Of a stretch of DNA of 64,000 nucleotides, positions 4,204-51,907 are shown piece by piece. Each line of letters opens with the position of its first letter. Within the stretch, counting starts at the first letter, position 1. The notes under the pieces are model-generated. The model was not told the origin of the DNA. It saw only the letters and a list, made by a program, of their open reading frames with translations, and did no database searches. The DNA is from Mycoplasmatota bacterium (GTDB taxonomy: Bacteria > Bacillota_I > Bacilli_A > Acholeplasmatales > Acholeplasmataceae), in NCBI GenBank assembly GCA_024650045.1, contig JANKMU010000004.1:78379-142378 (forward strand). Reading direction: 5' to 3'. Made by a program: the position numbers and the translations under genes.

Positions 4204-4233
4204 ATAGGCACAGTATTGATTAGAGAGGTTTCT

Positions 4234-5139
4234 ATGAAAAAAATAGTTGTAATTGGTGGGTCTGTTATTGATATATTTGCTTATCCACATCATAGAATGA
4301 TCATGAACGATTCAAACCCTGGATATTTAAGAAAATCGATGGGCGGTGTTGGTAGAAACATTGCTGAAAATTTGGTTCGCCTAGGATTAGACACAACATT
4401 AATCACTGTTTTAGGTGATGATGATGCTGGCATGTTCATCAAAGAAACATGTAGGAATCTTGGGTTAAAATTATCTATCGTTGAGGTATCAACAACTCCT
4501 ACATACTTATGCATTATGGATGAACATAATGAAGATTTAATAAGTGTAGCTGCTATGGATCAAATAGAAGCATTAAATGAGAATTCGCTTAATGAAAGAA
4601 GAATCATTATTAATCAAGCAGATATATTAATCGTTGATACTAACTTATCTATCGAAACACTCACTTACATTTTTGAAACCTATGATAAAGATATATATGT
4701 TGATACAATTTCTAGTCAAAAAGCAATTAAAATTAAACCATTTTTGTCTAAAATTAATACTCTAAAACTTAATCGTTTAGAGGCGGAATTACTTTCAGGT
4801 ATTCATTATGAGGATGAAAAAGATATTTATAAAATAGGCGACTATTTTATTTCTCACGGCGTTAAAGAAGTATTTATTACATTAGGTTCAAATGGTTCAT
4901 TATATATGAGTAATAAAATATCTCGCTATAAACCTTCATATAGAGTTCCTATCTTGAATTCTACTGGTGCAGGTGATGCATTCTTTGCAGGCGTCATTTA
5001 TGCAAAATTAAACAACTTAGATCCACTTGTTTATGGATCTGCATCAGCAATTGTTAATTTGCAAGATGAGAAAGCAGTTGCATCTGATTTAACAGTTGAA
5101 AAATTACATGAAACAATTAAGGAGTACAAATTATCATGA
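4234..5139 (+). CDS. psuK: PfkB-family carbohydrate kinase, probable pseudouridine kinase
   Basis: Ribokinase/PfkB fold motifs: N-terminal [10 protein letters not shown] and C-terminal [11 protein letters not shown]. It is translationally coupled (ATGA overlap) to the psuG-like gene. The start is moved to ATG 4234, which follows AGAGAGG; the track start TTG 4216 has no SD. Confidence 0.7.
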
Positions 5140-6047
5140 ACCAATATATTGATATTCATCCAGATGTTGAAAAAGCACTTAAAGAAAAAAAACCCGTTGT
5201 TGCACTCGAATCAACAATCATTTCCCATGGGATGCCATATCCACAAAATGTCGAAATGGCAATCAATGTTGAAAACTTGATTAAAGAAGAAGGTGCTGTG
5301 CCAGCAACGATTGCTATATTGGATGGCAGAATCAAAGTTGGTTTAACTCATAGCGAAATTGAACTTCTAGCAAAAGCTAAAGATGTTCATAAAGTAGGAA
5401 AAAGAGATTTTTCATATGTAGTTTCACAAAAAAGAAATGGAGCTACTACTGTTTCTGGGACTGCACTTGTTGCTGAAATGGTAGGTATCAAAATATTTGC
5501 TACAGGTGGGATAGGCGGTGTTCATCGTGGTGCTGAAAACACATTTGACATTTCTAGAGATCTTGAAGAGGTGTCACTTGTTAATGTTGCAGTGATTTGT
5601 GCTGGTGCTAAATCTATTTTAGATTTGGGGTTAACGCTTGAATACTTAGAAACAAAAGGCGTTGAAGTTATCGGTTATCAGACAAAAGAATTACCGGCTT
5701 TTTATACTAGAGAAAGTGGATTTCAAGTTAACTATCAACTTAACACACCAGAAGAGATTGCACAACTTTTACATGCAAAATGGTCACTCAATTTAACAGG
5801 TGGTATTATCGTTGCTAATCCAATTCCGAAACCATATAGTATGGATTCTACTCAAATTAACCAAGCAATTGAGCAAGCAGTTGAAGAAGCAAATCTGAAT
5901 GGAATTAAAGGTAATGAAGTAACTCCATACTTATTATCTAAAATAAAAAATATAACAGAAGGCTCAAGTTTAGAATCAAATATAGAACTTGTGTACAATA
6001 ATGCAAGATTAGCTGCAAAAATCGCATGTGCATATGCATTATTATAA
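5136..6047 (+). CDS. psuG: Pseudouridine-5'-phosphate glycosidase (YeiN/PsuG family)
   Basis: Family-typical N-terminus [19 protein letters not shown] and GGIGGVHRG motif, about 300 aa, paired with the PfkB kinase. Confidence 0.85.
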
Positions 6048-6070
6048 TAACTATATTTTATCCCTAAAAT

Positions 6071-6094
6071 AAGGATATGAAATATCCTTTTTTT
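6071..6094 (+). terminator. Intrinsic terminator after psuG
   Basis: Stem AAGGATAT/ATATCCTT with a 3-nt loop and a T7 run. Confidence 0.75.
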
Positions 6095-6185
6095 AACAGA
6101 TAGTTAAAAAACGTTCGAAAATACTATATAATTCGAGTAAAATATAATATAATAGATTTAAGTGGTTTTTTGAAAAGAGGAATTT

Positions 6186-7376
6186 ATGATGGATATATTT
6201 AAGAAATGTTATCAATTTGATACAGCCAAAAAAGCACGTGAAGGTGGATACTATCCATATTTTCACGAATTAACAAGTAAACAAGATACAGTCGTTCACA
6301 TGGAAGGCAAAGAGATGATTATGATCGGGTCAAATAATTACCTGGGATTGACATCACATCCAGAAGTTATTCAAGCAGCTGTAGAGGCGACTTTAAAATA
6401 TGGAACTGGGGTTTCTGGTTCGCGCTTTTTAAACGGTACATTGAATTTGCACAAGGATTTAGAAAGAGAACTAGCAGCATTTTTAAATAAAGAAGACTGC
6501 ACAATATTTTCAACTGGTTTCCAAAGTAATCTTGGAATTATTTCTGCTGTTGCAGGACGTAATGATATCATATTCTCTGATAAAGAAAATCATGCAAGCA
6601 TCTACGATGGCACAAGATTGAGTTATGCTGAAATTATTAGATACGAACATAGCAATATGGAAGACTTAGAAGAAAAGCTTTCAAAAGCGCCAGATAATAA
6701 AGGTAAAATTATTATTACTGATGGTGTCTTTTCAATGAGTGGCGATATCGCAAAGCTACCAGAAATAGTTGTTCTAGCTAAAAAATATGGAGCACGAATT
6801 ATGGTGGATGACGCTCATGGTTTTGGTGTTATGGGACCTACAGGAAGAGGAACAGCTGAACATTTTGGTTTAGAAGACGAGATTGATATTATTATGGGAA
6901 CATTTTCTAAATCATTAGCTAGTTTGGGTGGATATGTTGCTGCTGAAAGTGATGTTGTAGATTATATAAGACACAATTCACGTCCTTATATTTTCTCAGC
7001 TGCAATTCCAGCTGCAAATACAGCTGCAGCTCTCGCTGCACTACGTATTTTAAAGCGCGAACCTGAAAGAGTACATGCACTACATGATATTGCAGACTAT
7101 ATGCGACAAGGATTAAAAAATAAAGGATTAAAAATTAGAGATTCTAGAACACCAATAATACCAATATTTACGTATACGCAATTAAGAACTTTGGTTGCAT
7201 GTAATACATTATTCGAACAAGGTGTATATGTTAATCCTGTTGTTCCACCTGCAACCCCAGTTGGGGAATGCTTGATCAGAACAAGTTATACGGCTACACA
7301 TACAAAAGAACAAATGGACATTGCAATTGAAAAAATTGCAGAAGTTCTAAAGAATTTAGAAGATTTTGAGGAATAA
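6186..7376 (+). CDS. PLP-dependent alpha-oxoamine synthase, serine palmitoyltransferase-like
   Basis: Fold-type I AOS family (GSNNYLGL, DDAHGFG). The PLP-lysine context is GTFSKSL, and the N-terminal GGYYPYF, GSRFLNGT and C-terminal NPVVPPATP loop match bacterial SPT (Bacteroides/Sphingomonas type) rather than Kbl (GTLGKAL) or BioF. SD AAGAGGA lies upstream. Confidence 0.65.
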   Translation: MMDIFKKCYQFDTAKKAREGGYYPYFHELTSKQDTVVHMEGKEMIMIGSNNYLGLTSHPEVIQAAVEATLKYGTGVSGSRFLNGTLNLHKDLERELAAFLNKEDCTIFSTGFQSNLGIISAVAGRNDIIFSDKENHASIYDGTRLSYAEIIRYEHSNMEDLEEKLSKAPDNKGKIIITDGVFSMSGDIAKLPEIVVLAKKYGARIMVDDAHGFGVMGPTGRGTAEHFGLEDEIDIIMGTFSKSLASLGGYVAAESDVVDYIRHNSRPYIFSAAIPAANTAAALAALRILKREPERVHALHDIADYMRQGLKNKGLKIRDSRTPIIPIFTYTQLRTLVACNTLFEQGVYVNPVVPPATPVGECLIRTSYTATHTKEQMDIAIEKIAEVLKNLEDFEE

Positions 7377-7378
7377 AA

Positions 7379-8179
7379 ATGAAAGTAATTATAATTACGG
7401 GAGCATCCTCAGGTATCGGATTATCAATTGCACAATATCTTGCTACAAAAGGCAATAATGTGTATGGGATATCACGAACTAAAATACATGAGAAGAATAT
7501 TAAAAGTATTCAAGCGGATGTAACCCAGTTTGAACAACTTCAAAAAGCATATGAAGACATTTTCGAGGTTGAAGGAAAAATTGATATTTTAATTAACAAT
7601 GCAGGTATGGGTATTTCCGGTAGTATCGAAGATACATCATATGATGATGCTCAATATTTGATGAATGTCAATTTTATGGGTGTTTTTAACTCTACAAAAG
7701 CAGTACTTCCATTGATGAGAAAAAGCGGTGGTGGAAAGATTTTAAACATGAGCTCTGTAGCATCAAAACTATCGATTCCATTTCAATCATTTTATAGCAG
7801 CTCAAAGGCTGCAGTAAATGCTTTTACTGATGCATTAGCTAACGAAGTTGCCCCATTCAATATTCAAGCATGTTCAATTATGCCCGGTGATATAAAAACT
7901 GGTTTTACAAAAAATAGAAAGAAAAATGATATTGATAGTGAAGCTTACAAAAAACGCGTGGATAAATCTGTTGCTGTTATGGAAGAAGATGAAAACAACG
8001 GTATGGATCCTGAAGTTGCAGCAAAAGCAATACATCGTTTAGTTAAACGGAAAAGAATACCTTTATATAAAACAGTTGGTGTACAATATAAACTGATTGT
8101 GCTTTTAGCAAAAATTTTACCCGCAAAATTTGTCAATAATATTGTTGGATCAATTTATGGTTTTAAGAAAGATAAATAA
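7379..8179 (+). CDS. Classical short-chain dehydrogenase/reductase, candidate 3-ketosphinganine reductase
   Basis: Motifs TGASSGIG, NNAG and S...YSSSK catalytic residues. It starts 2 nt after the SPT-like stop, so the two are co-transcribed. Confidence 0.6.
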   Translation: MKVIIITGASSGIGLSIAQYLATKGNNVYGISRTKIHEKNIKSIQADVTQFEQLQKAYEDIFEVEGKIDILINNAGMGISGSIEDTSYDDAQYLMNVNFMGVFNSTKAVLPLMRKSGGGKILNMSSVASKLSIPFQSFYSSSKAAVNAFTDALANEVAPFNIQACSIMPGDIKTGFTKNRKKNDIDSEAYKKRVDKSVAVMEEDENNGMDPEVAAKAIHRLVKRKRIPLYKTVGVQYKLIVLLAKILPAKFVNNIVGSIYGFKKDK

Positions 8180-8211
8180 ACAATACATCTAAAGATAAAT
8201 CAAAAACAATA

Positions 8212-8237
8212 ATCGATGGAAACATCGATTTTTGTTT
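8212..8237 (+). terminator. Intrinsic terminator after the SDR gene
   Basis: Stem ATCGATG/CATCGAT with loop GAAA, followed by TTTTTGTTTG. Confidence 0.7.
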
Positions 8238-8290
8238 GCCATATCCACCAAATTATTTGTAAATAATTATCATAATTTATGTTAAAATCA

Positions 8291-8319
8291 TTGACATTAC
8301 ACCGAATGTATTATATAAT
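8291..8319 (+). promoter_or_regulatory. Consensus sigma-A promoter of the str operon (TTGACA-17-TATAAT)
   Basis: Perfect -35 at 8291..8296 and perfect -10 at 8314..8319 with a 17-nt spacer, about 120 nt upstream of rpsL. Confidence 0.8.
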
Positions 8320-8440
8320 AAAAACGCTGCGTGAAATACACGCGATACAAATGAATTTTTTGGCCCAATAAAGCCAAAAATAATTTTTAAACCAAAAAAT
8401 GAAACACTTGGATATGTGTTTGAAGAAAGGAGAACTATAA

Positions 8441-8866
8441 ATGCCAACAATTCAACAACTTGTAAAAAACGGAAGATCAAGCAAAAAGTATAAATCAAAA
8501 TCACCTGCACTAGGCTATGGTTACAACAGTCTAAAGAAAAGTGAATCAGACTATACTTCACCACAAAAACGTGGAGTTTGTACACGTGTAACAACAATGA
8601 CACCTAAGAAACCTAACTCTGCACTACGTAAGTATGCTCGTGTTCGCTTAAGCAACCAAACAGAAGTAACTGCTTATATTCCTGGTATTGGACACTCTTT
8701 GCAAGAACATAGTGTGGTACTTATTCGCGGTGGTCGTGTAAAAGACCTTCCTGGAGTACGTTATCACGTTGTTCGCGGTACATTAGACGCATCTGGCGTA
8801 GCAAATCGCCAACAAGCTCGTTCTAAGTATGGAGCAAAACGTCCAAAAGCTGCAGTTAAAAAATAA
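8441..8866 (+). CDS. rpsL: 30S ribosomal protein S12
   Basis: MPTIQQLVK start, [10 protein letters not shown] and [13 protein letters not shown] motifs. SD AAAGGAG lies upstream. Confidence 0.97.
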
Positions 8867-8920
8867 TAAATAATAAATCAGAAAAAGAAACATTCGAAAA
8901 GAAAGGAAGTAGGTGAACTC

Positions 8921-9391
8921 ATGCCACGTAAAGGACACATTGTAAAACGCGATGTTTTACCGGATCCAATTTATCAATCAAAACTTGTGACTCGTATTGT
9001 TAATACAATCATGGTTGATGGTAAAAAAGGAACAGCCCAAGGCATTTTATATGGCGCATTTAACCGCGTCAAAGAGGCAACTGGCCGCGAGCCAATTGAT
9101 GTTTTCAACGAAGCGTTGAATAACATTATGCCAGTATTAGAAGTTCGTTCACGCCGTATTGGTGGTCAAAACTACCAAGTACCAACTGAAGTTAGAGCTT
9201 CAAGAAAAACAACATTAGGATTAAGATGGTTAATTAATTACGCACGTTTGCGTAATGAAAAGACTATGGAAGAGAGATTAGCGAAAGAAATCATTGATGC
9301 ATCACAAGGATTAGGTGCAGCAGTGAAGAAACGTGAAGATGTCCATCGTATGGCTGAAGCAAATAAAGCATTTGCTCACTATCGCTGGTAA
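8921..9391 (+). CDS. rpsG: 30S ribosomal protein S7
   Basis: MPRKG...DPIY N-terminus, 156 aa, located between rpsL and fusA. Confidence 0.97.
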
Positions 9392-9406
9392 GTTAGGAGA
9401 ATTATT

Positions 9407-11479
9407 ATGCCTCGTGTATTCCCATTAGAAAAAACTCGTAATATTGGCATTATGGCCCATATTGATGCGGGTAAAACAACAACAACAGAAAGAATTTTAT
9501 ACCACACAGGAAAAATTCATAAAACTGGTGAAACGCATGATGGTGCTTCTCAAATGGACTGGATGGCTCAAGAGCAAGAACGCGGTATTACAATCACTTC
9601 AGCAGCAACTACTGCTTACTGGAATGAACACCGCATTAACATCATTGATACTCCAGGACATGTCGACTTCACGGTTGAAGTTTCAAGATCACTTCGTGTA
9701 TTAGATGGCGCTGTCGCTGTTCTTGATGCACAAGCAGGGGTTGAACCTCAAACTGAAACAGTTTGGAGACAAGCCACTGAATATAAAGTTCCAAGAATCG
9801 TTTATGTAAACAAAATGGATAAAATTGGCGCAGATTTCGCTCGTGCTATCAAGACCATGCATAATCGTTTAGGTGTTAAAGCATATGCAATTCAATGGCC
9901 AATCGGTGCTGAAGCAGATTTTAAAGGCATCATCGATATAATTGAAAAGAAAGCATACATCTATGATGGATCTGATGATGAAGCAAAGAAAGAAGTACCA
10001 ATCCCAGCACATTTAGTTGACATCGTTGAACAAAAAAGAAACGAATTGATTGAAGCAATCGCAGATTTTGATGAAGAAGTAATGATGCAGTATCTTGAAG
10101 GTGAGGAAGTAACAATTCCTCAAATCAAGAAAGCTATCCGTATTGGAACGCTAGCTGTTAAATTTTTCCCAGTTGTCTGTGGTACATCATTTAAAAACAA
10201 GGGTGTCAAGATGATGCTTGATGCAGTCGTTGACTACTTGCCAGCACCTACAGATGTTGCAGCAGTCATCGGACATAACAGTTATGGTGAAGAAGTTGTT
10301 CGTCATCCAAATGATAACGAACCATTTACTGCCTTAGCATTCAAAGTTATGACTGACCCATATGTAGGACGTTTGACATTCTTTAGAGTCTATTCAGGTA
10401 AAATTACTTCAGGCTCTTATGTATTAAACACAAATAAAAATAACAAAGAACGTTTTGGTCGTGTTCTTCAAATGCACGCAAATCACCGTGAAGAAATTAA
10501 AGAAGTCTATGCAGGTGATATTGCAGCAGTTGTTGGATTAAAAGATACAACGACAGGTGATACATTAACAGGAGAAAGAGATGACATTATTCTAGAAACA
10601 ATGATATTCCCAGAACCAGTTATTAACGTCGCTATCGAACCAAAAACAAAGCAAGATCAGGACAAGATGGGTATAGCACTTACAAAACTTGCTGAAGAAG
10701 ATCCAACATTTAGAACATTTACTGATCATGAAACGGGTCAAACAATTATCGCAGGTATGGGTGAACTTCACTTAGATATTATTGTCGATCGTATGAGAAG
10801 AGAATTTAAGGTAGAAGCAAATGTAGCTGAACCTCAAGTTTCTTATCGTGAAACATTAGCTGGAGAAGCTGATATCGAAGGAAAATTCGTTCGCCAATCT
10901 GGTGGTCGTGGTCAATATGGACACGTTCAAATTAAGTTTGAACCAAATCCTGGTAAAGGCTTTGAATTTGTTGATAAAATTGTTGGTGGTGTTATCCCAA
11001 GAGAATACATTCCAGCAGTTCAAAAAGGAATTGAAGAAGCACTTCCAAATGGTATCATCGCTGGTTATCCTGTAATTGATATTAAGGCAACTCTACATTA
11101 TGGTTCATACCATGATGTCGACTCATCAGAAATGGCATTTAAGATTGCTGCATCGATGGCACTTAAAGAAACAAAAAATAAGGCAAACCCTGTCTTATTA
11201 GAGCCTATTATGGACGTTGAAGTCGTTGCTCCAAATGATTATATTGGTAACGTTATTGGGGATTTAACATCTAGACGTGGTCGTCTTGAAAGTCAAGAAG
11301 GTCGTGATAACGCGGTTGTTATTCGTGCACTTGTGCCTTTAGCAGAAATGTTTGGATATGCGACATCACTTAGATCTAACACTCAAGGACGCGCAACATT
11401 CATCATGCAATTTTCAAGCTATGAACGTTGTCCAAAATCTATTATGGAAGAAATTATGAAAAAGCGTGGGACTAATTAA
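9407..11479 (+). CDS. fusA: Elongation factor G
   Basis: G-domain motifs [17 protein letters not shown] and NKMD, 690 aa, in str operon context. Confidence 0.97.
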
Positions 11480-11484
11480 TCCGC

Positions 11485-11513
11485 TTGCAAAAATGTATAT
11501 TTTAATATACAAT
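11485..11513 (+). promoter_or_regulatory. Candidate internal promoter for tuf (TTGCAA-17-TACAAT)
   Basis: -35 at 11485..11490 and -10 at 11508..11513. A second extended -10 (TGGTAAAAT) lies at 11520..11528. Confidence 0.5.
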
Positions 11514-11581
11514 GAATTATGGTAAAATGAAAGTAATAAAAAAATAAAAAAAACAAATCTCATATAGGAGGAAATATTAAA

Positions 11582-12766
11582 ATGGCAAAACAAAAATTTG
11601 AAAGAACTAAACCACATGTTAACGTCGGTACAATCGGACACGTTGACCATGGTAAAACAACTTTAACAGCTGCAATCACAAGCTTATTTTCAAAACAAGG
11701 CTTAGCAGAAATTAAAGATTATGCATCTATTGATAGTGCACCAGAAGAAAAAGAACGCGGTATTACAATTAATACAGCACACGTTGAATATGCAACAACT
11801 AAACGTCACTATGCACACGTTGACTGCCCAGGACATGCTGACTATGTCAAGAACATGATTACTGGTGCTGCTCAAATGGATGGTGGTATTCTTGTTGTAT
11901 CAGCTGCTGATGGTCCTATGCCACAAACTCGTGAACATATTCTACTTGCTCGTCAAGTTGGGGTTCCTAAGTTAGTTGTATACATGAACAAAGCAGATAT
12001 GGTTGATGATGATGAATTACTAGATTTAGTTGAAATGGAAATTCGTGAATTATTATCAGAATACGGATTCCCAGGTGATGACATTCCTGTTATTCGTGGT
12101 TCAGCACTAGGTGCATTGAATGGCGAAGAAAAATGGGAAGCTACAGTTCAAGAATTAATGGATTATGTTGATAGCTATATCGATACTCCAGTTCGTGAAA
12201 CTGACAAGCCTTTCTTAATGCCAGTTGAAGACGTATTTACAATTACTGGTCGTGGTACAGTTGCTACAGGTCGTGTTGAACGCGGTCAAGTTAAGAGTGG
12301 TGACCAAGTAGAAATTATTGGTATTACTGACACTAAAACAACAGTTGTTACTGGTGTTGAAATGTTCAGAAAAATCTTAGACTATGCAGAAGCTGGAGAC
12401 AATATCGGTGCGTTACTACGTGGTATCAACCGTGATCAAGTTGAACGTGGTCAAGTATTAGCTAAACCAAAATCAGTGAACCCACACTTCAAGTTTGAAG
12501 CACAAGTTTACGTATTATCAAAAGAAGAAGGTGGACGTCATACTGCATTCTTCTCAAACTATCGCCCACAATTCTATTTCCGTACAACTGACATTACAGG
12601 TGTTATTACACTTCAAGAAGGTACAGAAATGGTTATGCCAGGTGACAACACAGTTATGAACGTTGAATTGATTCACCCAATCGCAATCGAAGAAGGAACT
12701 AAGTTCTCTATTCGTGAAGGTGGACGCACAGTTGGTGCAGGTTCAGTTGTTAAAATTGTTGAGTAA
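11582..12766 (+). CDS. tuf: Elongation factor Tu
   Basis: Motifs [17 protein letters not shown] and NKAD, 394 aa. A strong SD (AGGAGG) precedes it. Confidence 0.98.
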
Positions 12767-12775
12767 TTAAAATTT

Positions 12776-35207: not shown

Positions 35208-36749
35208 ATGAAAAAAATATCAATTTTAATAATGCTTCTCATGATATCAATTTTTCTGGTTTCATGCGATCAAGAAATATTCACTAGTACTGATTACACA
35301 GAGCAAATAGAAAGTTTAGCTTTAGAAATTGAGCAATTGATTCCAGATACAATCAATGCTGATTTTGATTTGCCAAACTATAATGATTACGATATTGTAT
35401 ATACATTAGGAGATCAGTCATATACCGATGAGTATATTTATAACTCACCGTTTTTTGACGTAGATCAAGAATTCAAGTATCAAATAACACGAGGACAGAC
35501 CTCCCTTGAATTTTCTAAACAAGTTAGGCATTTATCATATGAATCGGGTCACAACTTTAATAAAATATATCTAGATTTGCCGGTAACTATAGAAAACATA
35601 TCCAGAGATATTTACACTCAAGTTGATGTTACTGTCCTAACAACTAAAAACAAAGAAGAAGTTGTTGAACATTCAACATCAGATGCGCAAATACGAGGTA
35701 GAGGCAATTCAACTTGGTTTTCATTCGAGAAAAAACCTTATCGTTTACGTTTTGACAAAAATACTTCAATTCTAGGTATGCCAGAAGCTAAAAATTATGT
35801 TTTGCTTGCTGAATATAGTGATAAATCATTAATGAGAAATACGATTACTCACAAAATGAGTACATTTTTTAATAACATTCCATATCATCTTCAAATAAGA
35901 TATGTGGAATTGTATGTAAATCAAGAATACAGGGGTTTATATGTTCTAACAGAACAAGTTGAAATTCACCCAAATAAATATTATATCGAGTCAACACCGG
36001 GAAGTTTTAATACAGGATACTTTCTAGAGTTGGATTGGAGATTAATGGAATCTGGTACACAACCAGGTTTCGATTGGTTTAGAGTCAGTGAAATCCCATA
36101 TGAGATAAAAGAACCCGATTCTAGTGATCTAGCATATACCACAGCACATGTTACTTATATATCGCAATATCTAAAAGATATAGAAAATGCATTGATTGCT
36201 AAATCTGGATATGAAGAATTAGTTGATATTGATAATTTTATCGAACATTTTATTATTCATGAATTTGTTAAAAATGTCGATGTTGGTTGGAGTAGTATAT
36301 TCATGTCAAAAGAAAAAGATAGTAAATTACTATATCCAATGATTTGGGATTTTGATCTCGCCATTGGAAACGCAGATTATATTGATTATGGTCCAGAAAA
36401 CTTTTACGGATTTGCATCTAATAAAAATCGATTTTTTCATTTGATGATGCAAATACCGGAAGTTCGTTTAAAATTTAGAGAACGATTTAATGATTTCTAT
36501 TTTGATGAGTTACCTATATTGCTCGAAATGATTCCTGTATTGGCAACATCTTTAAGTACGCAAGTTAATGCTAATTTTAGCAAATGGAATATATTGAATC
36601 ATTATGTTTGGCCAAACCCACCAGAGATGCTGGAAGCAAACACTTATGAAAAACAAATTCAATATCTTATGGATTACATGAATGCTCGCGCATCATGGAT
36701 GCTTGAAACTATGTTAACTGAAGATTATGAAAATGGATATTTTGATTAA
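35208..36749 (+). CDS. CotH-family (atypical kinase fold) lipoprotein
   Basis: Lipobox FLVSC. CotH-like motifs KKPYRLRFDK, LMRNTITHKMS, YVELYVNQEYRGLYVLTEQVE and WDFDLAIGN. Confidence 0.65.
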   Translation: MKKISILIMLLMISIFLVSCDQEIFTSTDYTEQIESLALEIEQLIPDTINADFDLPNYNDYDIVYTLGDQSYTDEYIYNSPFFDVDQEFKYQITRGQTSLEFSKQVRHLSYESGHNFNKIYLDLPVTIENISRDIYTQVDVTVLTTKNKEEVVEHSTSDAQIRGRGNSTWFSFEKKPYRLRFDKNTSILGMPEAKNYVLLAEYSDKSLMRNTITHKMSTFFNNIPYHLQIRYVELYVNQEYRGLYVLTEQVEIHPNKYYIESTPGSFNTGYFLELDWRLMESGTQPGFDWFRVSEIPYEIKEPDSSDLAYTTAHVTYISQYLKDIENALIAKSGYEELVDIDNFIEHFIIHEFVKNVDVGWSSIFMSKEKDSKLLYPMIWDFDLAIGNADYIDYGPENFYGFASNKNRFFHLMMQIPEVRLKFRERFNDFYFDELPILLEMIPVLATSLSTQVNANFSKWNILNHYVWPNPPEMLEANTYEKQIQYLMDYMNARASWMLETMLTEDYENGYFD

Positions 36750-40181: not shown

Positions 40182-43124
40182 TTATAATCCACTTTCCAAA
40201 ATTGTAAACCATGAACCATATAAGTCATCATAGTTTTGATCATAAACACCAATTGTTGATAATAGATACTCATTCATTTGACGTCTATTGATTTCTCTTA
40301 CAACTTCATATCTAGCTTCGCCTTGAGTATTTCCCCAAGTTGCATCTTCTAATAATTTGAAGATTAATTCACGTTGCATGTATGTATTGTTGTAGCGAGT
40401 TAATACTGGAGTTAAGTAATTGTTAACTGCTGTTTGTACTACTGAAGGTAATACAACACCTTCATCAGTTTTTTGTTCTTTTAAATAGAACTCGATTTGT
40501 GAAGCAGTCAATGTATCTGAATCTTCATTATATACATTTAGTGTTTCATCAGCAGAAACGTATTTACCATCTTCATCTTCATCAGCACTAAAGATTGCGC
40601 TTGTTGTCTTTCTTACATTAGTAGCAAGAATTAAATGCCAACCGAATGATGACTTAACTTCATCTAATGCACTTTCAGTAATAACTGTTCCATATAAATC
40701 AAGGTATGGGAATTTAGATGCATCGTCTTCAATTTCTGCAAGTTGTGCATGAAGTTCCATTGCACGATCGTAGAAGACAGGATCTAATACTGTTTGGCCA
40801 GTGATTTTGTTAGAAGTATTTGTAATAGCAGAAGAGATGTTTTCAAACTTTAAGTAGAAACCTAATTGACGGTATTCAGCCCATAACAATTCGATTTGAT
40901 AATCAAATGGTGGGGTTACACTACCACGTTCAATACGTCCTGAGTTATTAAACTCTGTTGCCATTGCAGATAAACCTTCAGTAAATCCTCTATAGTCTCC
41001 AACCTTGTTATAAATTAATTCAACTAAATCAACGAGTCCATCAAGAACTTGTTGAGCACCAACCTCACCTAAACTTTCAAGATATTCAGTTGGATTATCA
41101 GGCGTACCATCGCCATTTTTATCGAAATAAACGAGTAAGTGACTAACTGTTATTGATTTGAAGTTATTATATTGTAGTTCTGCTAAGTCAGCTAGTTTTT
41201 CATAAATTGTGTAATCTTCAGTTCCGAAGTGTCCTTCGATATCTTCAAGATATTGTTCTCTTAATGCTGGGTAAACGTATAATTGATTTACAGCTTCAGT
41301 GTTTGTTCTTGCACCAAATGCAGTTAATAAGAATTTTTCTCTACCCATACTTGCGGGGAATCCAGAAGTTTCAAAGTTATTTGCAGAAAATTGACTAATT
41401 ATATCTTCAAATTGACTCTTATAATCTTCAAATTCTTCATCTGTAACTGCGTAGTCTTCATTAGCCATTAAGATTTTGTTAGATGCGATATCTAACGCTA
41501 AGTTGATACCATAAGATCTTTCAAGACGTTGATAGAATTCATCAACAGTAATCTCTGCATCTGAGATATCAGCAACAACATCACCAGTCTTAGTATTAGT
41601 TGTTCCTTCATATCCAAATGATTGTTCATAGAATATACGAATAACTGAGTCGTAAATATTTAAATTTAAATCTTCGTATAATTCATTTATTTTTGTTGAA
41701 ATATAGTTGTTGTTCAATTTACCATTGAAGATTCTTTCATATATTTCAGCTTTGATATCCAATGCTTCCTTTGAATCACCAAATATTTGAACATTTTCAT
41801 TTTGTGGATCATCGACAAGGATTCCATCTTCAGAATCACTGTCATCATCTAGTTTGAATACTAAATAACGTGATGAACCAAATGTTTGAACGCGTGCTGA
41901 ATATGGTTTACCTTCAGTTACATCTTCAGGATCATCCATTTGTGCTTCAGCAGTTAATGTTGTGTAAATATGAATTCTTAAACTTGAATTTTGTGTGTTT
42001 AAATCATCATAAGTAATTGTTGAGTTAAAAGTTGAACCACCAACGCCGACGATGTCTCCATCAACATTAATTTCAACTTGAGAAGCAGGGTTTAACATAT
42101 TATAGATATTGACAAATTCTGCTTTAACTTGTGCTGTTGTTAAAGCTTCATCAGCTAAACCTGTATCTCTACTAGTGCTAATTGAGTATTGTTTGTAGTA
42201 GTTTTCATAATCAGCTACAGTGATTTGATCACGATCTTCAAAGTCATTTCCCAATTTACCTAAAATATTCAAATTTTCTAAAATAGATTTAACATGTCCA
42301 TAACCTGTTTGGCTTAAGTCATTCAAATCTATGTAACCAGGGTTACCTGGTAAAATTCTTATATCAGGAATTTTATACCAAAGACCTCTAGAGTCTGATT
42401 TAATACTTGCTTGATATAATGCAGCGTTTGCTTCGTTTAAGTTAATAAAACGAACAACTAATGCATTAACATCATAACGACCTTGCATTGAGTTTTTATA
42501 AGAATTGACAAGATCAGCTTCTTTAATGTAATTTGCATGATCTTCATCAATAACTTCTTCTTCAAGAATTTGTTGTGCATAGTATCTTTGAGTTACTCTT
42601 AATCCATAGCGTTCTACTAAAACAGGAATGCTAGAATAACCTTCATAAATACCAGACAAACCTTGAATGCTATTAATTACTGCTGCAATTTCTATGCTGT
42701 TATCCAATAGGTATAATGAATCTGCAAACTGCTCAATATTTCTAACCCATCTTTCAGGATTTTCGTTGTACATTTTTTCGAGAGACTCTAAATCTGTACC
42801 TCCATGAATGGCGTTATTGATTGTTTCATCTAAATATTTGTTTAGATCTTCATCTCCACTTGCTAGTAAGCCTTTTACAGTTACTAACTCTTCAGCAAAG
42901 ATTTTTTCATCTACCATAGTTGCTAAAACAGAAGCACCTTGCAAACGTAATTGATCATATAATTCTTTTTCCGTTACTACGATATCTCCGATGGTTAAAT
43001 ATGGGTCATCAGAAATACTTCCATAAGGGGTTTTTTCACCGCTCTTGCAAGCAGCCAGTGTAAGTAAACCTGTCAATATTAGCACAAATATGGCAAGTTT
43101 TCTTAAATTTCTTAGTTGATTCAT
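40182..43124 (-). CDS. 980-aa surface lipoprotein with SurA-N-like start and a split parvulin-like PPIase domain (giant PrsA-like foldase)
   Basis: Lipobox LTLAAC. N-terminal chaperone-like segment (TIGDIVVTEKELYDQLRLQGASVLATMVDEKIF). Parvulin signature pieces ITVSHLLVYF ... SSFGWHLILATN lie about 170 aa apart. Confidence 0.5.
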   Translation of the reverse strand: MNQLRNLRKLAIFVLILTGLLTLAACKSGEKTPYGSISDDPYLTIGDIVVTEKELYDQLRLQGASVLATMVDEKIFAEELVTVKGLLASGDEDLNKYLDETINNAIHGGTDLESLEKMYNENPERWVRNIEQFADSLYLLDNSIEIAAVINSIQGLSGIYEGYSSIPVLVERYGLRVTQRYYAQQILEEEVIDEDHANYIKEADLVNSYKNSMQGRYDVNALVVRFINLNEANAALYQASIKSDSRGLWYKIPDIRILPGNPGYIDLNDLSQTGYGHVKSILENLNILGKLGNDFEDRDQITVADYENYYKQYSISTSRDTGLADEALTTAQVKAEFVNIYNMLNPASQVEINVDGDIVGVGGSTFNSTITYDDLNTQNSSLRIHIYTTLTAEAQMDDPEDVTEGKPYSARVQTFGSSRYLVFKLDDDSDSEDGILVDDPQNENVQIFGDSKEALDIKAEIYERIFNGKLNNNYISTKINELYEDLNLNIYDSVIRIFYEQSFGYEGTTNTKTGDVVADISDAEITVDEFYQRLERSYGINLALDIASNKILMANEDYAVTDEEFEDYKSQFEDIISQFSANNFETSGFPASMGREKFLLTAFGARTNTEAVNQLYVYPALREQYLEDIEGHFGTEDYTIYEKLADLAELQYNNFKSITVSHLLVYFDKNGDGTPDNPTEYLESLGEVGAQQVLDGLVDLVELIYNKVGDYRGFTEGLSAMATEFNNSGRIERGSVTPPFDYQIELLWAEYRQLGFYLKFENISSAITNTSNKITGQTVLDPVFYDRAMELHAQLAEIEDDASKFPYLDLYGTVITESALDEVKSSFGWHLILATNVRKTTSAIFSADEDEDGKYVSADETLNVYNEDSDTLTASQIEFYLKEQKTDEGVVLPSVVQTAVNNYLTPVLTRYNNTYMQRELIFKLLEDATWGNTQGEARYEVVREINRRQMNEYLLSTIGVYDQNYDDLYGSWFTILESGL

Positions 43125-49730: not shown

Positions 49731-51905
49731 ATGAAAAAACTGATTTTAGGTCTGATTATTTTCTTTGTTTTATTTCTAGTGAGCATTGGTATTCAATTTG
49801 TTATCAACATGCGTATCGATCCAATTCCAATGCGTCCATTGGAATCTTTTAATTCTGGAGGAAGTGACAGATTAATCTATTATTTCGATAAACATTTAAA
49901 AGATGAGGATTTACCTGAAGGTATAGAACTAACCGATGATTTTATCAATCAAGAACTTGAAGGTACATTTAGATACATCAACGGACGTTATGATGTTGCT
50001 GATTTTAGAGTCAATTCTTTAGTTCGCTTATATTTAGGATATAAAGATCACTTGCACCAAGATACACAAGATGATATTAAAGAAGTATTGTTAAACTTTA
50101 AGTATTGGATGGATCAAGGTGGAGAAGACAGCATGTGTTACTGGTCTGAAAATCATCAGATTCTTTTTGCTGTTGAAGAGTATTTAGTAGGACAAACATT
50201 TCCTAATGAAATCTTTACTGTGGATGGAAAAACCGGATTAGAACATATGGAAATGGCAAAAAATAGAATCAATATTTGGATGGAACAACGCTTTACTTAT
50301 GGTTTTACAGAATGGTATTCAAATAACTATTATCCAGAAGATATTTCTCCGATGTCTAATTTCATACAATATTCTGATGATCCAGTTATGGTCAACCGAA
50401 TGAAAATGATTATGGATTTATTGTGGTTTGACATGGCAAGTCAAAGTTTTAAATATGAAGGAAAAGATATGACCAGTGACCTAGATCGAACATATTATAT
50501 ATTTAATTCATCTATGGGTCGTGCATATTCAGATAATAGAGTAAGCGATGATACTGGCAATAGAATGCGCAATTATATTGATTTTGTAATGCAACCAGAA
50601 GAAACCAAGGATTTTGAAAACAGTTGGTTTACTTCAAGTAATGGATTTTTCAATTGCTTTAAACAAATGATGGAAGCTGTTGATGGAAATAATGAACCTT
50701 ATTATCAAATCCCTGATGTCATTAAAGAAATTTTTGATGACTCATCTGAAGAAAAAATATTGAAATCAAGTCAATCATTAAACGTTGAAGATCTTGAAAG
50801 TGAAGGCTTGCTAGGTCTTGAAGATCATCAAATTATGATGCAATGGAATATGGAAGCATTTAGTAATCCTGAAGTTGTTGATAATACAATTCAATATATG
50901 TCAAATCACAACATGTTTAAAAACGAATTTTTAAATGATTTTAAAATGGTCAATTTATGGCCACTTAGAGCATTTAATCTTTTATATATGGTAAGTGATA
51001 AATTAGAGCCAGTAACCAATGGAGTAGCAATAGAAAGAGCAAATGTCTATACATATAAAACACCTTACTACTCAATGCATACAGCTCAAGCTTATCAACC
51101 AGGAGAGTATGCAGATCAACATGCTATATCTTCAGTAAATTTGAGTAATCAAGTATCTGTGTTTTCAACGCAACCTGCTAAGATTCCTAGAAGAAGCGGA
51201 ACTCCAACTTACTGGACAGGAAACGGTAGACAACCATATAGTGTACAAGAAAAGAATGTTAATATTAGTATTTATCAACCACCAACAAAAACAGGTTTTA
51301 TGGAACCGATGATTATAAAAGAAACAACACATGTTTTTTTCCCATATCAGTTATTTGATGAAGTCAATGAATCTTACTTAGATCAAGGGTTCATTTTTGG
51401 ACGTGTTGGCTCAAGTATGATTGGAATAAAGGCTAGATATGAACTAGAGTTTGTTCCATATAGTGTAAGCAGTAATCCCGATGATATGGATGATATGTTG
51501 AAACGTGGAAGCGTTGGTAATGTTTTAACTGAGAAGTATGATTTGGTACAAATAGGTAGTGGAGACCATTATTATGTAACAGAATTATCAAATATAGAAA
51601 ATGAAACTTTTTCTCAGTTCATTAACAGAATGATGGATAATGATCTTAACTATGATGAAACAAATCATTCAATAGTTTATGAAACAGTGTTAAATAATGA
51701 GACTACAGCATCAGAACTTGTAGCAATTTATGATACAAGTTTCTCAGTTAATGGAATGATAAAGGATTTGGAATATCAACGTTATGAAAATGAATATGTT
51801 AAAAACGGAATCATCAATCGTAAACCAGATGAAATAGAATTTTCTTTTAACGGCAAATCTTTATTATTAAATTTCGTAAATCATACTAGAACCGTGGGTA
51901 ATTAA
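49731..51905 (+). CDS. Membrane-anchored/secreted 724-aa protein of unassigned family (paralog A), candidate polysaccharide lyase
   Basis: N-terminal signal-anchor MKKLILGLIIFFVLFLVSIG. It shares motif blocks with ORF 54123..55976 along its whole length (DFRxxxLxRxYLGYK, FKYWMDxxGEDxMCxWSENHQxLF, YGFxEWxSNxYYxEDI, GVAIERANxYTYKTxYY, FSTxP, WxGNG, QxKN). No family recognised by eye. Confidence 0.45.
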   Translation: MKKLILGLIIFFVLFLVSIGIQFVINMRIDPIPMRPLESFNSGGSDRLIYYFDKHLKDEDLPEGIELTDDFINQELEGTFRYINGRYDVADFRVNSLVRLYLGYKDHLHQDTQDDIKEVLLNFKYWMDQGGEDSMCYWSENHQILFAVEEYLVGQTFPNEIFTVDGKTGLEHMEMAKNRINIWMEQRFTYGFTEWYSNNYYPEDISPMSNFIQYSDDPVMVNRMKMIMDLLWFDMASQSFKYEGKDMTSDLDRTYYIFNSSMGRAYSDNRVSDDTGNRMRNYIDFVMQPEETKDFENSWFTSSNGFFNCFKQMMEAVDGNNEPYYQIPDVIKEIFDDSSEEKILKSSQSLNVEDLESEGLLGLEDHQIMMQWNMEAFSNPEVVDNTIQYMSNHNMFKNEFLNDFKMVNLWPLRAFNLLYMVSDKLEPVTNGVAIERANVYTYKTPYYSMHTAQAYQPGEYADQHAISSVNLSNQVSVFSTQPAKIPRRSGTPTYWTGNGRQPYSVQEKNVNISIYQPPTKTGFMEPMIIKETTHVFFPYQLFDEVNESYLDQGFIFGRVGSSMIGIKARYELEFVPYSVSSNPDDMDDMLKRGSVGNVLTEKYDLVQIGSGDHYYVTELSNIENETFSQFINRMMDNDLNYDETNHSIVYETVLNNETTASELVAIYDTSFSVNGMIKDLEYQRYENEYVKNGIINRKPDEIEFSFNGKSLLLNFVNHTRTVGN

Positions 51906-51907
51906 AG

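Follow-up and report, generated by a model that had tools for sequence, protein, structure and literature searches.

A 64,000-nucleotide stretch of contig JANKMU010000004.1 from a Mycoplasmatota bacterium (assembly GCA_024650045.1), hereafter the window, carries two adjoining genes on the forward (+) strand that probably form a bicistronic operon for the synthesis of a sphingoid long-chain base. The genes are: (i) an spt-like gene (6186–7376, +), which encodes a pyridoxal 5'-phosphate (PLP)-dependent alpha-oxoamine synthase (AOS) of 396 residues, with Lys242 as the Schiff-base lysine, that is predicted to be a serine palmitoyltransferase (SPT), and (ii) a kdsR-like gene (7379–8179, +), which encodes a classical short-chain dehydrogenase/reductase (SDR) of 266 residues that is predicted to be an NADPH-dependent 3-ketosphinganine reductase. 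The assignment is based on homology, residue conservation, tree placement, operon anatomy and synteny (of the pair and, in relatives, of a GNAT gene); the substrates, acyl carrier, cofactor, order of steps and final lipid are what we infer.

The first protein belongs to the AOS family by its match to Pfam Aminotran_1_2 (PF00155; 206 bits, E=1e-60, residues 43–384) and the second to the SDR family by its match to Pfam adh_short (175 bits, E=2e-51); with these E-values, neither open reading frame (ORF) is a chance reading frame. Among NCBIfam models, the AOS is matched best by NF047600, serine palmitoyltransferase (CFB type), at 544.6 bits, followed by TIGR01825 (419 bits), Kbl (415), BioF (400), ALAS (277) and CqsA (225), with a second Kbl model at 343 bits. 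In the PDB, the best match is the SPT of Sphingobacterium multivorum (SmSPT, 434 bits), and the next are Sphingomonas SPT (SpSPT, 293), Thermus BioF/Kbl (286), Kbl (282) and two cysteate acyltransferases (CFATs; 276 and 254). The AOS is 50.4% identical to SmSPT, 40.5% to SpSPT, 36.7% to E. coli Kbl and 29.1% to E. coli BioF. The motifs GGYYPYF, GSRFLNGT, GTFSKSL and VNPVVPPATP, by which a preliminary description of the locus had recognized the enzyme, are all found in the translated ORF, and E. coli-type Kbl reads GTLGKAL around the lysine, as stated there.

The active site of the AOS was compared with SmSPT at 24 positions, most of which are named in the crystal study of that enzyme (PMC10196870) and which span the PLP contacts, the serine carboxylate/hydroxyl network, the Gly80-Asn85 loop and N-terminal pocket residues. 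The AOS is identical to SmSPT at 23 of these active-site, PLP-contact and acyl-pocket positions, and the exception (M271I) is a backbone contact. K242, H136, D208 and H211 of the AOS align with SmSPT K244, H138, D210 and H213, which serve as the Schiff-base lysine, the PLP-stacking histidine, the aspartate to the pyridine N1 and the histidine to O3', respectively (PMC10196870). The surroundings of the serine side chain (N50, G78, S79, T239, S241 and K242) are likewise those of SmSPT. By contrast, E. coli Kbl differs at 9 of the 24 positions (e.g., GS to SV, FSKS to LGKA, and the N-terminal Y/Y/F to F/E/E). SmSPT (PDB 3A2B/8GUH; the NF047600 family) resembles the window AOS further in that it is soluble, about 395 residues long and 50% identical end to end, and in that the two enzymes share the PLP- and serine-binding residues, the compared N-terminal acyl-pocket residues and the GSRFLNGT and GTFSKSLASLGG motifs. 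They differ in that the window AOS falls in a separate Bacillota/Mycoplasmatota subclade and has a PPATP loop, as in Sphingomonas SPT, where SmSPT reads SPAVP.

The placement of the AOS was examined in a neighbor-joining tree (37 sequences, 393 columns, 100 bootstraps) of homologs from 78 genome loci, SmSPT and SpSPT (from the PDB alignments), E. coli Kbl and E. coli BioF. The window AOS lies in an Acholeplasmataceae clade (support 100) that joins Izemoplasmatales (support 94) and then Clostridia, other Bacillota and Kiritimatiellia (94). These clades are contained in a 29-sequence clade (support 90) together with SmSPT and AOSs flanked by CerR-like and GNAT genes, with SpSPT, the Kbl clade and BioF outside. 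The Kbl clade includes E. coli Kbl and the homologs of four loci (L072–L075), of which the L074 homolog was checked as Kbl against Kbl structures. Clustering inside the Kbl or BioF clades is, thus, not seen: E. coli Kbl, the four Kbl-like homologs and BioF all branch elsewhere. The AOS-family phylogeny proposed in the preliminary description is realized as far as the grouping with SmSPT to the exclusion of Kbl and BioF; ALAS and CqsA are absent from the tree. Best hidden Markov model, best PDB match, active-site residues and tree all follow the SPT rather than the Kbl/BioF pattern, as first suggested, and the prediction of the AOS as an SPT is supported.

The SDR carries the TGASSGIG, NNAG and YSSSK motifs of a classical SDR, as quoted earlier and confirmed here in the 266-residue ORF. 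Among NCBIfam models, it is matched best by that of the 3-ketodihydrosphingosine reductase KdsR, NF049977 (263 bits, end to end), which we take to represent the family of the characterized Bacteroides protein BT_0972. A PDB search with the SDR returned generic SDRs only (best 3M1A, 112 bits), and no threonine dehydrogenase model is among its 25 best NCBIfam matches shown. A Ser-Arg pair (GISRTK) follows strand beta-2 and, by general SDR rules, hints at the use of NADPH. The SDR adjoins an SPT-like gene in 37 of the 78 loci (Acholeplasmataceae, Izemoplasmatales and Clostridia). The KdsR assignment is of moderate strength when judged on the protein alone and stronger with this context; the 3-ketosphinganine reductase expected from the start thus remains the predicted function, KdsR being the best model and the pair being syntenic across three lineages.

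The two genes read as a self-contained, translationally coupled unit between rpoC and rpsL, since hairpins lie on both sides, a promoter-like site precedes the AOS gene and a Shine-Dalgarno sequence for the SDR gene lies within the end of the AOS gene. On the 5' side (all + strand), an AT-rich hairpin with a T-run (6071–6094; AAGGATAT-gaa-ATATCCTT then TTTTT, read from the sequence 3' of psuG) probably ends the upstream psuK-psuG unit; it was missed by the hairpin scan because it has too few G-C pairs. The promoter-like site (6104–6132; TTAAAA-17 nt-TATAAT, 10 of 12 consensus matches) is a consensus match only, in a region no richer in such sites than shuffled sequence. A Shine-Dalgarno sequence for the AOS gene (AAAGAGGAA, 6174–6182, read from the sequence) is followed by an ORF that opens with two ATG codons (6186–6191). 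Relatives begin at the second, with MDLFKKC, and the Shine-Dalgarno spacing also suits the second ATG (6189) better; thus, the real AOS probably starts at 6189. The ORF at 6186–7376 is present as first described, and its length of 396 residues would become 395. Two nucleotides (AA) separate the AOS stop codon (TAA, 7374–7376) from the SDR ATG at 7379, which is the 2-nt gap noted earlier, and the Shine-Dalgarno sequence GAGGAA (7368–7373, +, read from the sequence) within the last AOS codons points to translational coupling. On the 3' side, 32 nt past the SDR stop, a terminator-like hairpin with a T-run (8211–8230, +; an 8-bp stem then TTTGTTTG) would close the unit.

The order of genes around the pair is rpoC, a psuK-like kinase gene, psuG, AOS, SDR, rpsL, rpsG, fusA and tuf, in a window of low G+C content (about 31–37%) and positive GC skew throughout. 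The psuK-like PfkB kinase gene and psuG (pseudouridine-5'-phosphate glycosidase, PF04227) at 4216–6047 are inserted between rpoC and the AOS gene; they are conserved far less than the AOS among relatives and are absent from some. Downstream of the pair, a perfect sigma-70 promoter (TTGACA-17 nt-TATAAT, 8291–8319) lies upstream of rpsL and opens the rpsL operon; the leader after it is about 120 nt long and includes two hairpins (8329–8343 and 8357–8380).

Peloplasma aerotolerans M4Ah has an AOS that shares 97% identity with the window protein, and a contig of M4Ah is collinear with window positions 4213–12775 at 90.9% nucleotide identity. Because of this identity and collinearity, the source is placed as a second Peloplasma species (Acholeplasmataceae); the pair is, therefore, not the pointer to Acholeplasma axanthum that it had been suggested to be. 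The matches of a pattern-based scan of genome contigs include no classical Acholeplasma species, which is weak as evidence of absence. The same AOS-SDR pair is found in the cultured strain P. aerotolerans DSM 112561 (97% and 92% identity, respectively).

The pair is retained across the relatives of the window. In each of the 31 Mycoplasmatota loci whose sequence continues downstream, the AOS gene is followed by the SDR gene, usually after a gap of a few nucleotides, and in the Acholeplasmataceae-type loci the two genes share one position, between rpoC and rpsL. Izemoplasmatales (L030, L032 and L054) and some Clostridia (L031, L033, L039 and L046) have the pairing as well. Over 30 Acholeplasmataceae loci, the median identity of the AOS (87.6%) is close to that of RpoC (89.1%) and EF-G (87.5%), with the SDR at 72.5%, PsuG at 71.7% and PsuK at 50.9%; judged by these values, the AOS is under housekeeping-level constraint. 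Recurrent neighbors of the pair in Mycoplasmatota, as read by eye, resemble GntR-type regulators, a GGDEF protein, a TetR regulator, a phosphoenolpyruvate carboxykinase and an NYN protein, and a likeness to lipid enzymes was seen in none of them. A protein of about 208 residues of the formate/nitrite transporter family (PF01226, 91 bits) is encoded by a third operon gene in 19 Acholeplasmataceae loci, where it starts at or overlaps the SDR stop (e.g., L009 11994–12620 and L005 12001–12624); it is absent from the window and from L001, and in the window rpsL comes 260 bp on. In the Izemoplasmatales L030 and L032, a gene of the D-2-hydroxyacid/phosphoglycerate dehydrogenase family (PF02826; e.g., L032 10578–11510) lies 3' of the SDR gene and could be tied to serine supply, or its position may be coincidental.

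In some Clostridia, the pair is also part of a larger cluster. Two metagenome-assembled genomes (MAGs) carry an SPT-like AOS, a KdsR-like SDR and a GNAT gene side by side (L039 1785–4895; L083 3945–7119), with the AOS 66–67% and the SDR 44–45% identical to the window proteins. The third gene encodes a protein of about 373 residues with a weak C-terminal GNAT match, which aligns over its full length with the GNAT protein encoded beside AOSs in FCPU426, Nitrospirae and related loci (25% identity, E=1e-29); a PDB search with the GNAT protein found no solved relative. In a Christensenellales locus (L084 5113–7128), the GNAT gene is not beside spt and directly follows a gene for a fatty-acid-binding protein of the DegV family, an adjacency that hints that this GNAT family handles fatty acyl substrates.

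The GNAT genes invite comparison with the Caulobacter-type cluster of Spt, bCerS (a GNAT protein) and CerR (an NDUFA9-like, epimerase-family reductase), which shares its condensing step with the window. The deeper relatives of the AOS (about 50% identity, from FCPU426, Nitrospirae and Eubacteriales) are flanked by a gene for an NAD-epimerase-family reductase and one for a GNAT protein of about 380 residues, as in Caulobacter. Since bCerS is a GNAT acyltransferase and CerR is NDUFA9-like, these clusters match the Caulobacter-type ceramide architecture, with the GNAT protein bCerS-like and the epimerase CerR-like by domain and context. The NDUFA9-like nature of CerR is as described in PMC11087976. 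The window has neither the GNAT nor the epimerase-family reductase and encodes a classical SDR instead, which implies that reduction would precede acylation; eukaryotes follow this order, and it has been proposed for Bacteroides. The 3-ketosphinganine reductase of B. thetaiotaomicron, KdsR BT_0972 (PMC9278070), is, like the window SDR, a classical SDR (about 267 residues) with a Gly-rich motif and YxxxK. The likeness of the two is drawn through the KdsR model (263 bits against a cut-off of 400) and not from direct alignment. They also differ in context: the window gene is coupled to spt, whereas the locus numbers of the Bacteroides SPT and reductase are distant (BT_0870 and BT_0972).

The proposed pathway would begin with formation of an external aldimine between the AOS and L-serine, followed by condensation with a C16/C18 acyl thioester and loss of CO2 to yield 3-ketosphinganine. 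The acyl donor would probably be acyl-acyl carrier protein (acyl-ACP), since mollicutes are not known to use acyl-coenzyme A for lipid metabolism. The coupled SDR would then reduce the 3-keto group to form sphinganine, probably with NADPH. Ceramide would then form by N-acylation, for which 3-hydroxy fatty acids may serve; this step would be encoded elsewhere, as would any addition of a head group.

A number of observations weigh against this pathway. The later steps are not in evidence: no ceramide synthase, ACP, lipid kinase, N-acyltransferase or head-group enzyme is recognizable among the ORFs of the window (at least 110 residues, or at least 60 residues in the first 16 kb, such that an ACP-sized gene could escape beyond 16 kb), and a tblastn search of the window with 11 GNAT and 12 reductase sequences gave no match better than E=0.28. 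The earlier remark that no ceramide synthase or ACP gene is adjacent thus holds, and it extends to the other Mycoplasmatota loci, where no N-acyltransferase, ACP or head-group gene was seen beside the pair when neighbors were read by eye. A protein-database search for an Acholeplasmataceae homolog of the GNAT protein was uninformative, its best 120 matches being Clostridia or unlabeled. For the SDR, the score falls below the NF049977 cut-off (263 of 400 bits), the margin over the next model (a generic SDR, 210 bits) is a modest 53 bits, and the margin of the Clostridia ortholog over generic models is only 9 bits. For the AOS, the tree was built by neighbor joining only, without CFAT, ALAS, CqsA or Bacteroides SPT references (whose PDB scores are 160–300 bits lower), and the node that ties SmSPT directly to the subclade of the window has a support of only 40%. 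The AOS also misses the NF047600 equivalog cut-off (544.6 of 640 bits). This model was calibrated with SmSPT (732 bits), E. coli Kbl (348 bits) and three AOSs whose genes have an epimerase-family reductase gene on one side and a GNAT gene on the other (519–579 bits, with NF047600 as their best model). Because the AOSs of these CerR/GNAT clusters likewise reach only 519–579 bits, the cut-off appears to be tuned to Bacteroidota orthologs, and the missed threshold is not treated as evidence against SPT function.

Sphingolipids were reportedly described chemically around 1970 in a sterol-nonrequiring mycoplasma that later received the name A. axanthum and whose sphingolipid is reported to contain amide-linked 3-hydroxy acids. 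A wall-less organism without lipopolysaccharide (presumably absent from M4Ah) has few sources of 3-hydroxy acids. The fatty acids of P. aerotolerans M4Ah include C16:0 and C18:0 as major components as well as 3-OH C18:0 (4.1%) and 3-OH C16:0 (1.8%), the 3-hydroxy acids being measured after acid methanolysis (PMC11122141). A review entry reads 'Mycoplasma spp.: sphingophospholipid' (PMC10626005). As signs of sphingolipids in this genus, the 3-hydroxy acids and the review entry are circumstantial only.

The most serious rival is an SPT-like enzyme that acts on another amino acid, either alanine or glycine to give 1-deoxy bases or cysteate to give capnine-type sulfonolipids, with the SDR reducing the corresponding keto-amine; it is considered unlikely, though ahead of the other alternatives. 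The capnine/sulfonolipid pathway (SulA/CapB and dehydrocapnine reductase) has the same logic, in which an AOS and then a ketoreductase form a sphingoid-like base, and the CFATs, which are close homologs of the AOS (276 and 254 bits), are likewise partnered by a reductase. Bacterial SPTs themselves show some activity with alanine and glycine, used at low efficiency (PMC10196870), a point that also counts against the main reading, and many anaerobes contain deoxy- and sulfono-ceramides (PMC11334938). Against this alternative, the residues around the serine side chain are the same as in SmSPT, the score against SmSPT is about 160 bits above those of the CFATs, and the diagnostic Lys281, which sets the sulfonolipid enzyme SulA apart from SPTs (PMC9304779), is replaced in the AOS by Ala272, as in SPTs.

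It is improbable that the AOS and SDR make a diffusible amino-ketone or amino-alcohol signal or secondary metabolite, in the manner of CqsA or natural-product AOSs, rather than a membrane lipid. AOS enzymes do serve autoinducer and alkaloid pathways, and the CqsA model matches the AOS at 225 bits; however, in about 30 species the gene keeps a fixed core-genome position between rpoC and rpsL, the AOS equals RpoC in conservation, its acyl-pocket residues match those of the long-chain enzyme SmSPT, and relatives add a GNAT protein of the type seen in ceramide-type clusters. A role of the AOS as BioF (8-amino-7-oxononanoate synthase) in biotin synthesis is given slightly less weight still. This is the label that JGI gives to many of the AOS homologs, and the BioF model scores 400 bits, but this is under its cut-off of 426; E. 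coli BioF is 29% identical and forms the outgroup of the tree, bioA, bioB and bioD are not found in the 64 kb window, and the conserved SDR partner has no role in biotin synthesis.

The E. coli kbl-tdh locus resembles the window in that an AOS gene lies beside an oxidoreductase gene; its gene order is reversed, Kbl is 37% identical and falls in a separate clade, and Tdh (341 residues) is what we take to be a member of the medium-chain zinc dehydrogenase family, not a classical SDR. Least probable of all is a glycine C-acetyltransferase (Kbl) with a dehydrogenase, for threonine catabolism or the formation of aminoacetone/aminopropanol: the pairing of kbl with a dehydrogenase gene and Kbl model scores of 415 and 343 bits are in its favor, yet both scores are under the cut-offs (460 and 493, respectively), the AOS is outside the Kbl clade and differs at the Kbl signature positions, the SDR of 266 residues is unlike Tdh in size, and no threonine dehydrogenase model is among the 25 best SDR matches shown.

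A wider proposal, held tentatively and thought more doubtful than the synthesis of a long-chain base, is that the spt-kdsR operon has descended vertically as the core of a sphingolipid pathway in which reduction comes first and which is specific to a Bacillota/Mycoplasmatota SPT clade, that its products are near-essential membrane-ordering lipids, and that the N-acyltransferase is unrelated or only distantly related to bCerS. If true, the AOS would be as conserved as RpoC because sphingolipids are near-essential in the wall-less, sterol-independent Acholeplasmataceae.

Elsewhere in the window are other genes of note. An apparent sugar-utilization cluster (49731–57021) encodes a xylose-isomerase-like TIM-barrel protein, an MFS_2 glycoside transporter and a GH88 unsaturated glucuronyl hydrolase, flanked by two large paralogs (724 and 630 residues) that have no Pfam match and could be novel polysaccharide-processing enzymes. 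A lipoprotein-like protein of 513 residues (35208–36749) has a CotH kinase domain (PF08757, E=1e-40), which is unusual for a mollicute, and a predicted lipoprotein of 980 residues (40182–43124, - strand; signal peptide and Cys) has no Pfam match.

That a mycoplasma-like organism contains sphingolipids is long-known chemistry, and SPT-like genes are widespread, being predicted in about 40 bacterial phyla (PMC11334938). No paper in the literature searched ties an SPT gene to Acholeplasma, and public annotation of the homologs reads 'aminotransferase family protein', '8-amino-7-oxononanoate synthase' or generic SDR. What appears new, as predicted from sequence, is the gene-level SPT assignment in Mollicutes, the close packing of spt and kdsR into an operon at a fixed position of the core genome, and the grouping of spt, kdsR and a GNAT gene in Clostridia. 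This pair is probably the hitherto missing genetic basis of the sphingolipids that were reported decades ago from mycoplasma-like bacteria. The assignment provides a concrete two-gene candidate that is directly testable, since the cultured P. aerotolerans DSM 112561 carries the same pair.

The presence of spt, a KdsR-like SDR and a GNAT gene in one Clostridia cluster also lends genomic support to the debated route in bacteria in which KDSR acts first. AOS homologs of 64–70% identity are found in MAGs labeled Christensenella/Christensenellaceae (L033, L038, L040 and L042). This distribution suggests sphingolipid synthesis in gut Bacillota, outside Bacteroidota, with producers that would include Christensenellales and be relevant to lipid exchange between gut microbes and their host. 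If true, Bacteroidota would not be the sole sphingolipid producers of the gut, since the same clade and the GNAT protein occur in gut Christensenellales and other Clostridia.

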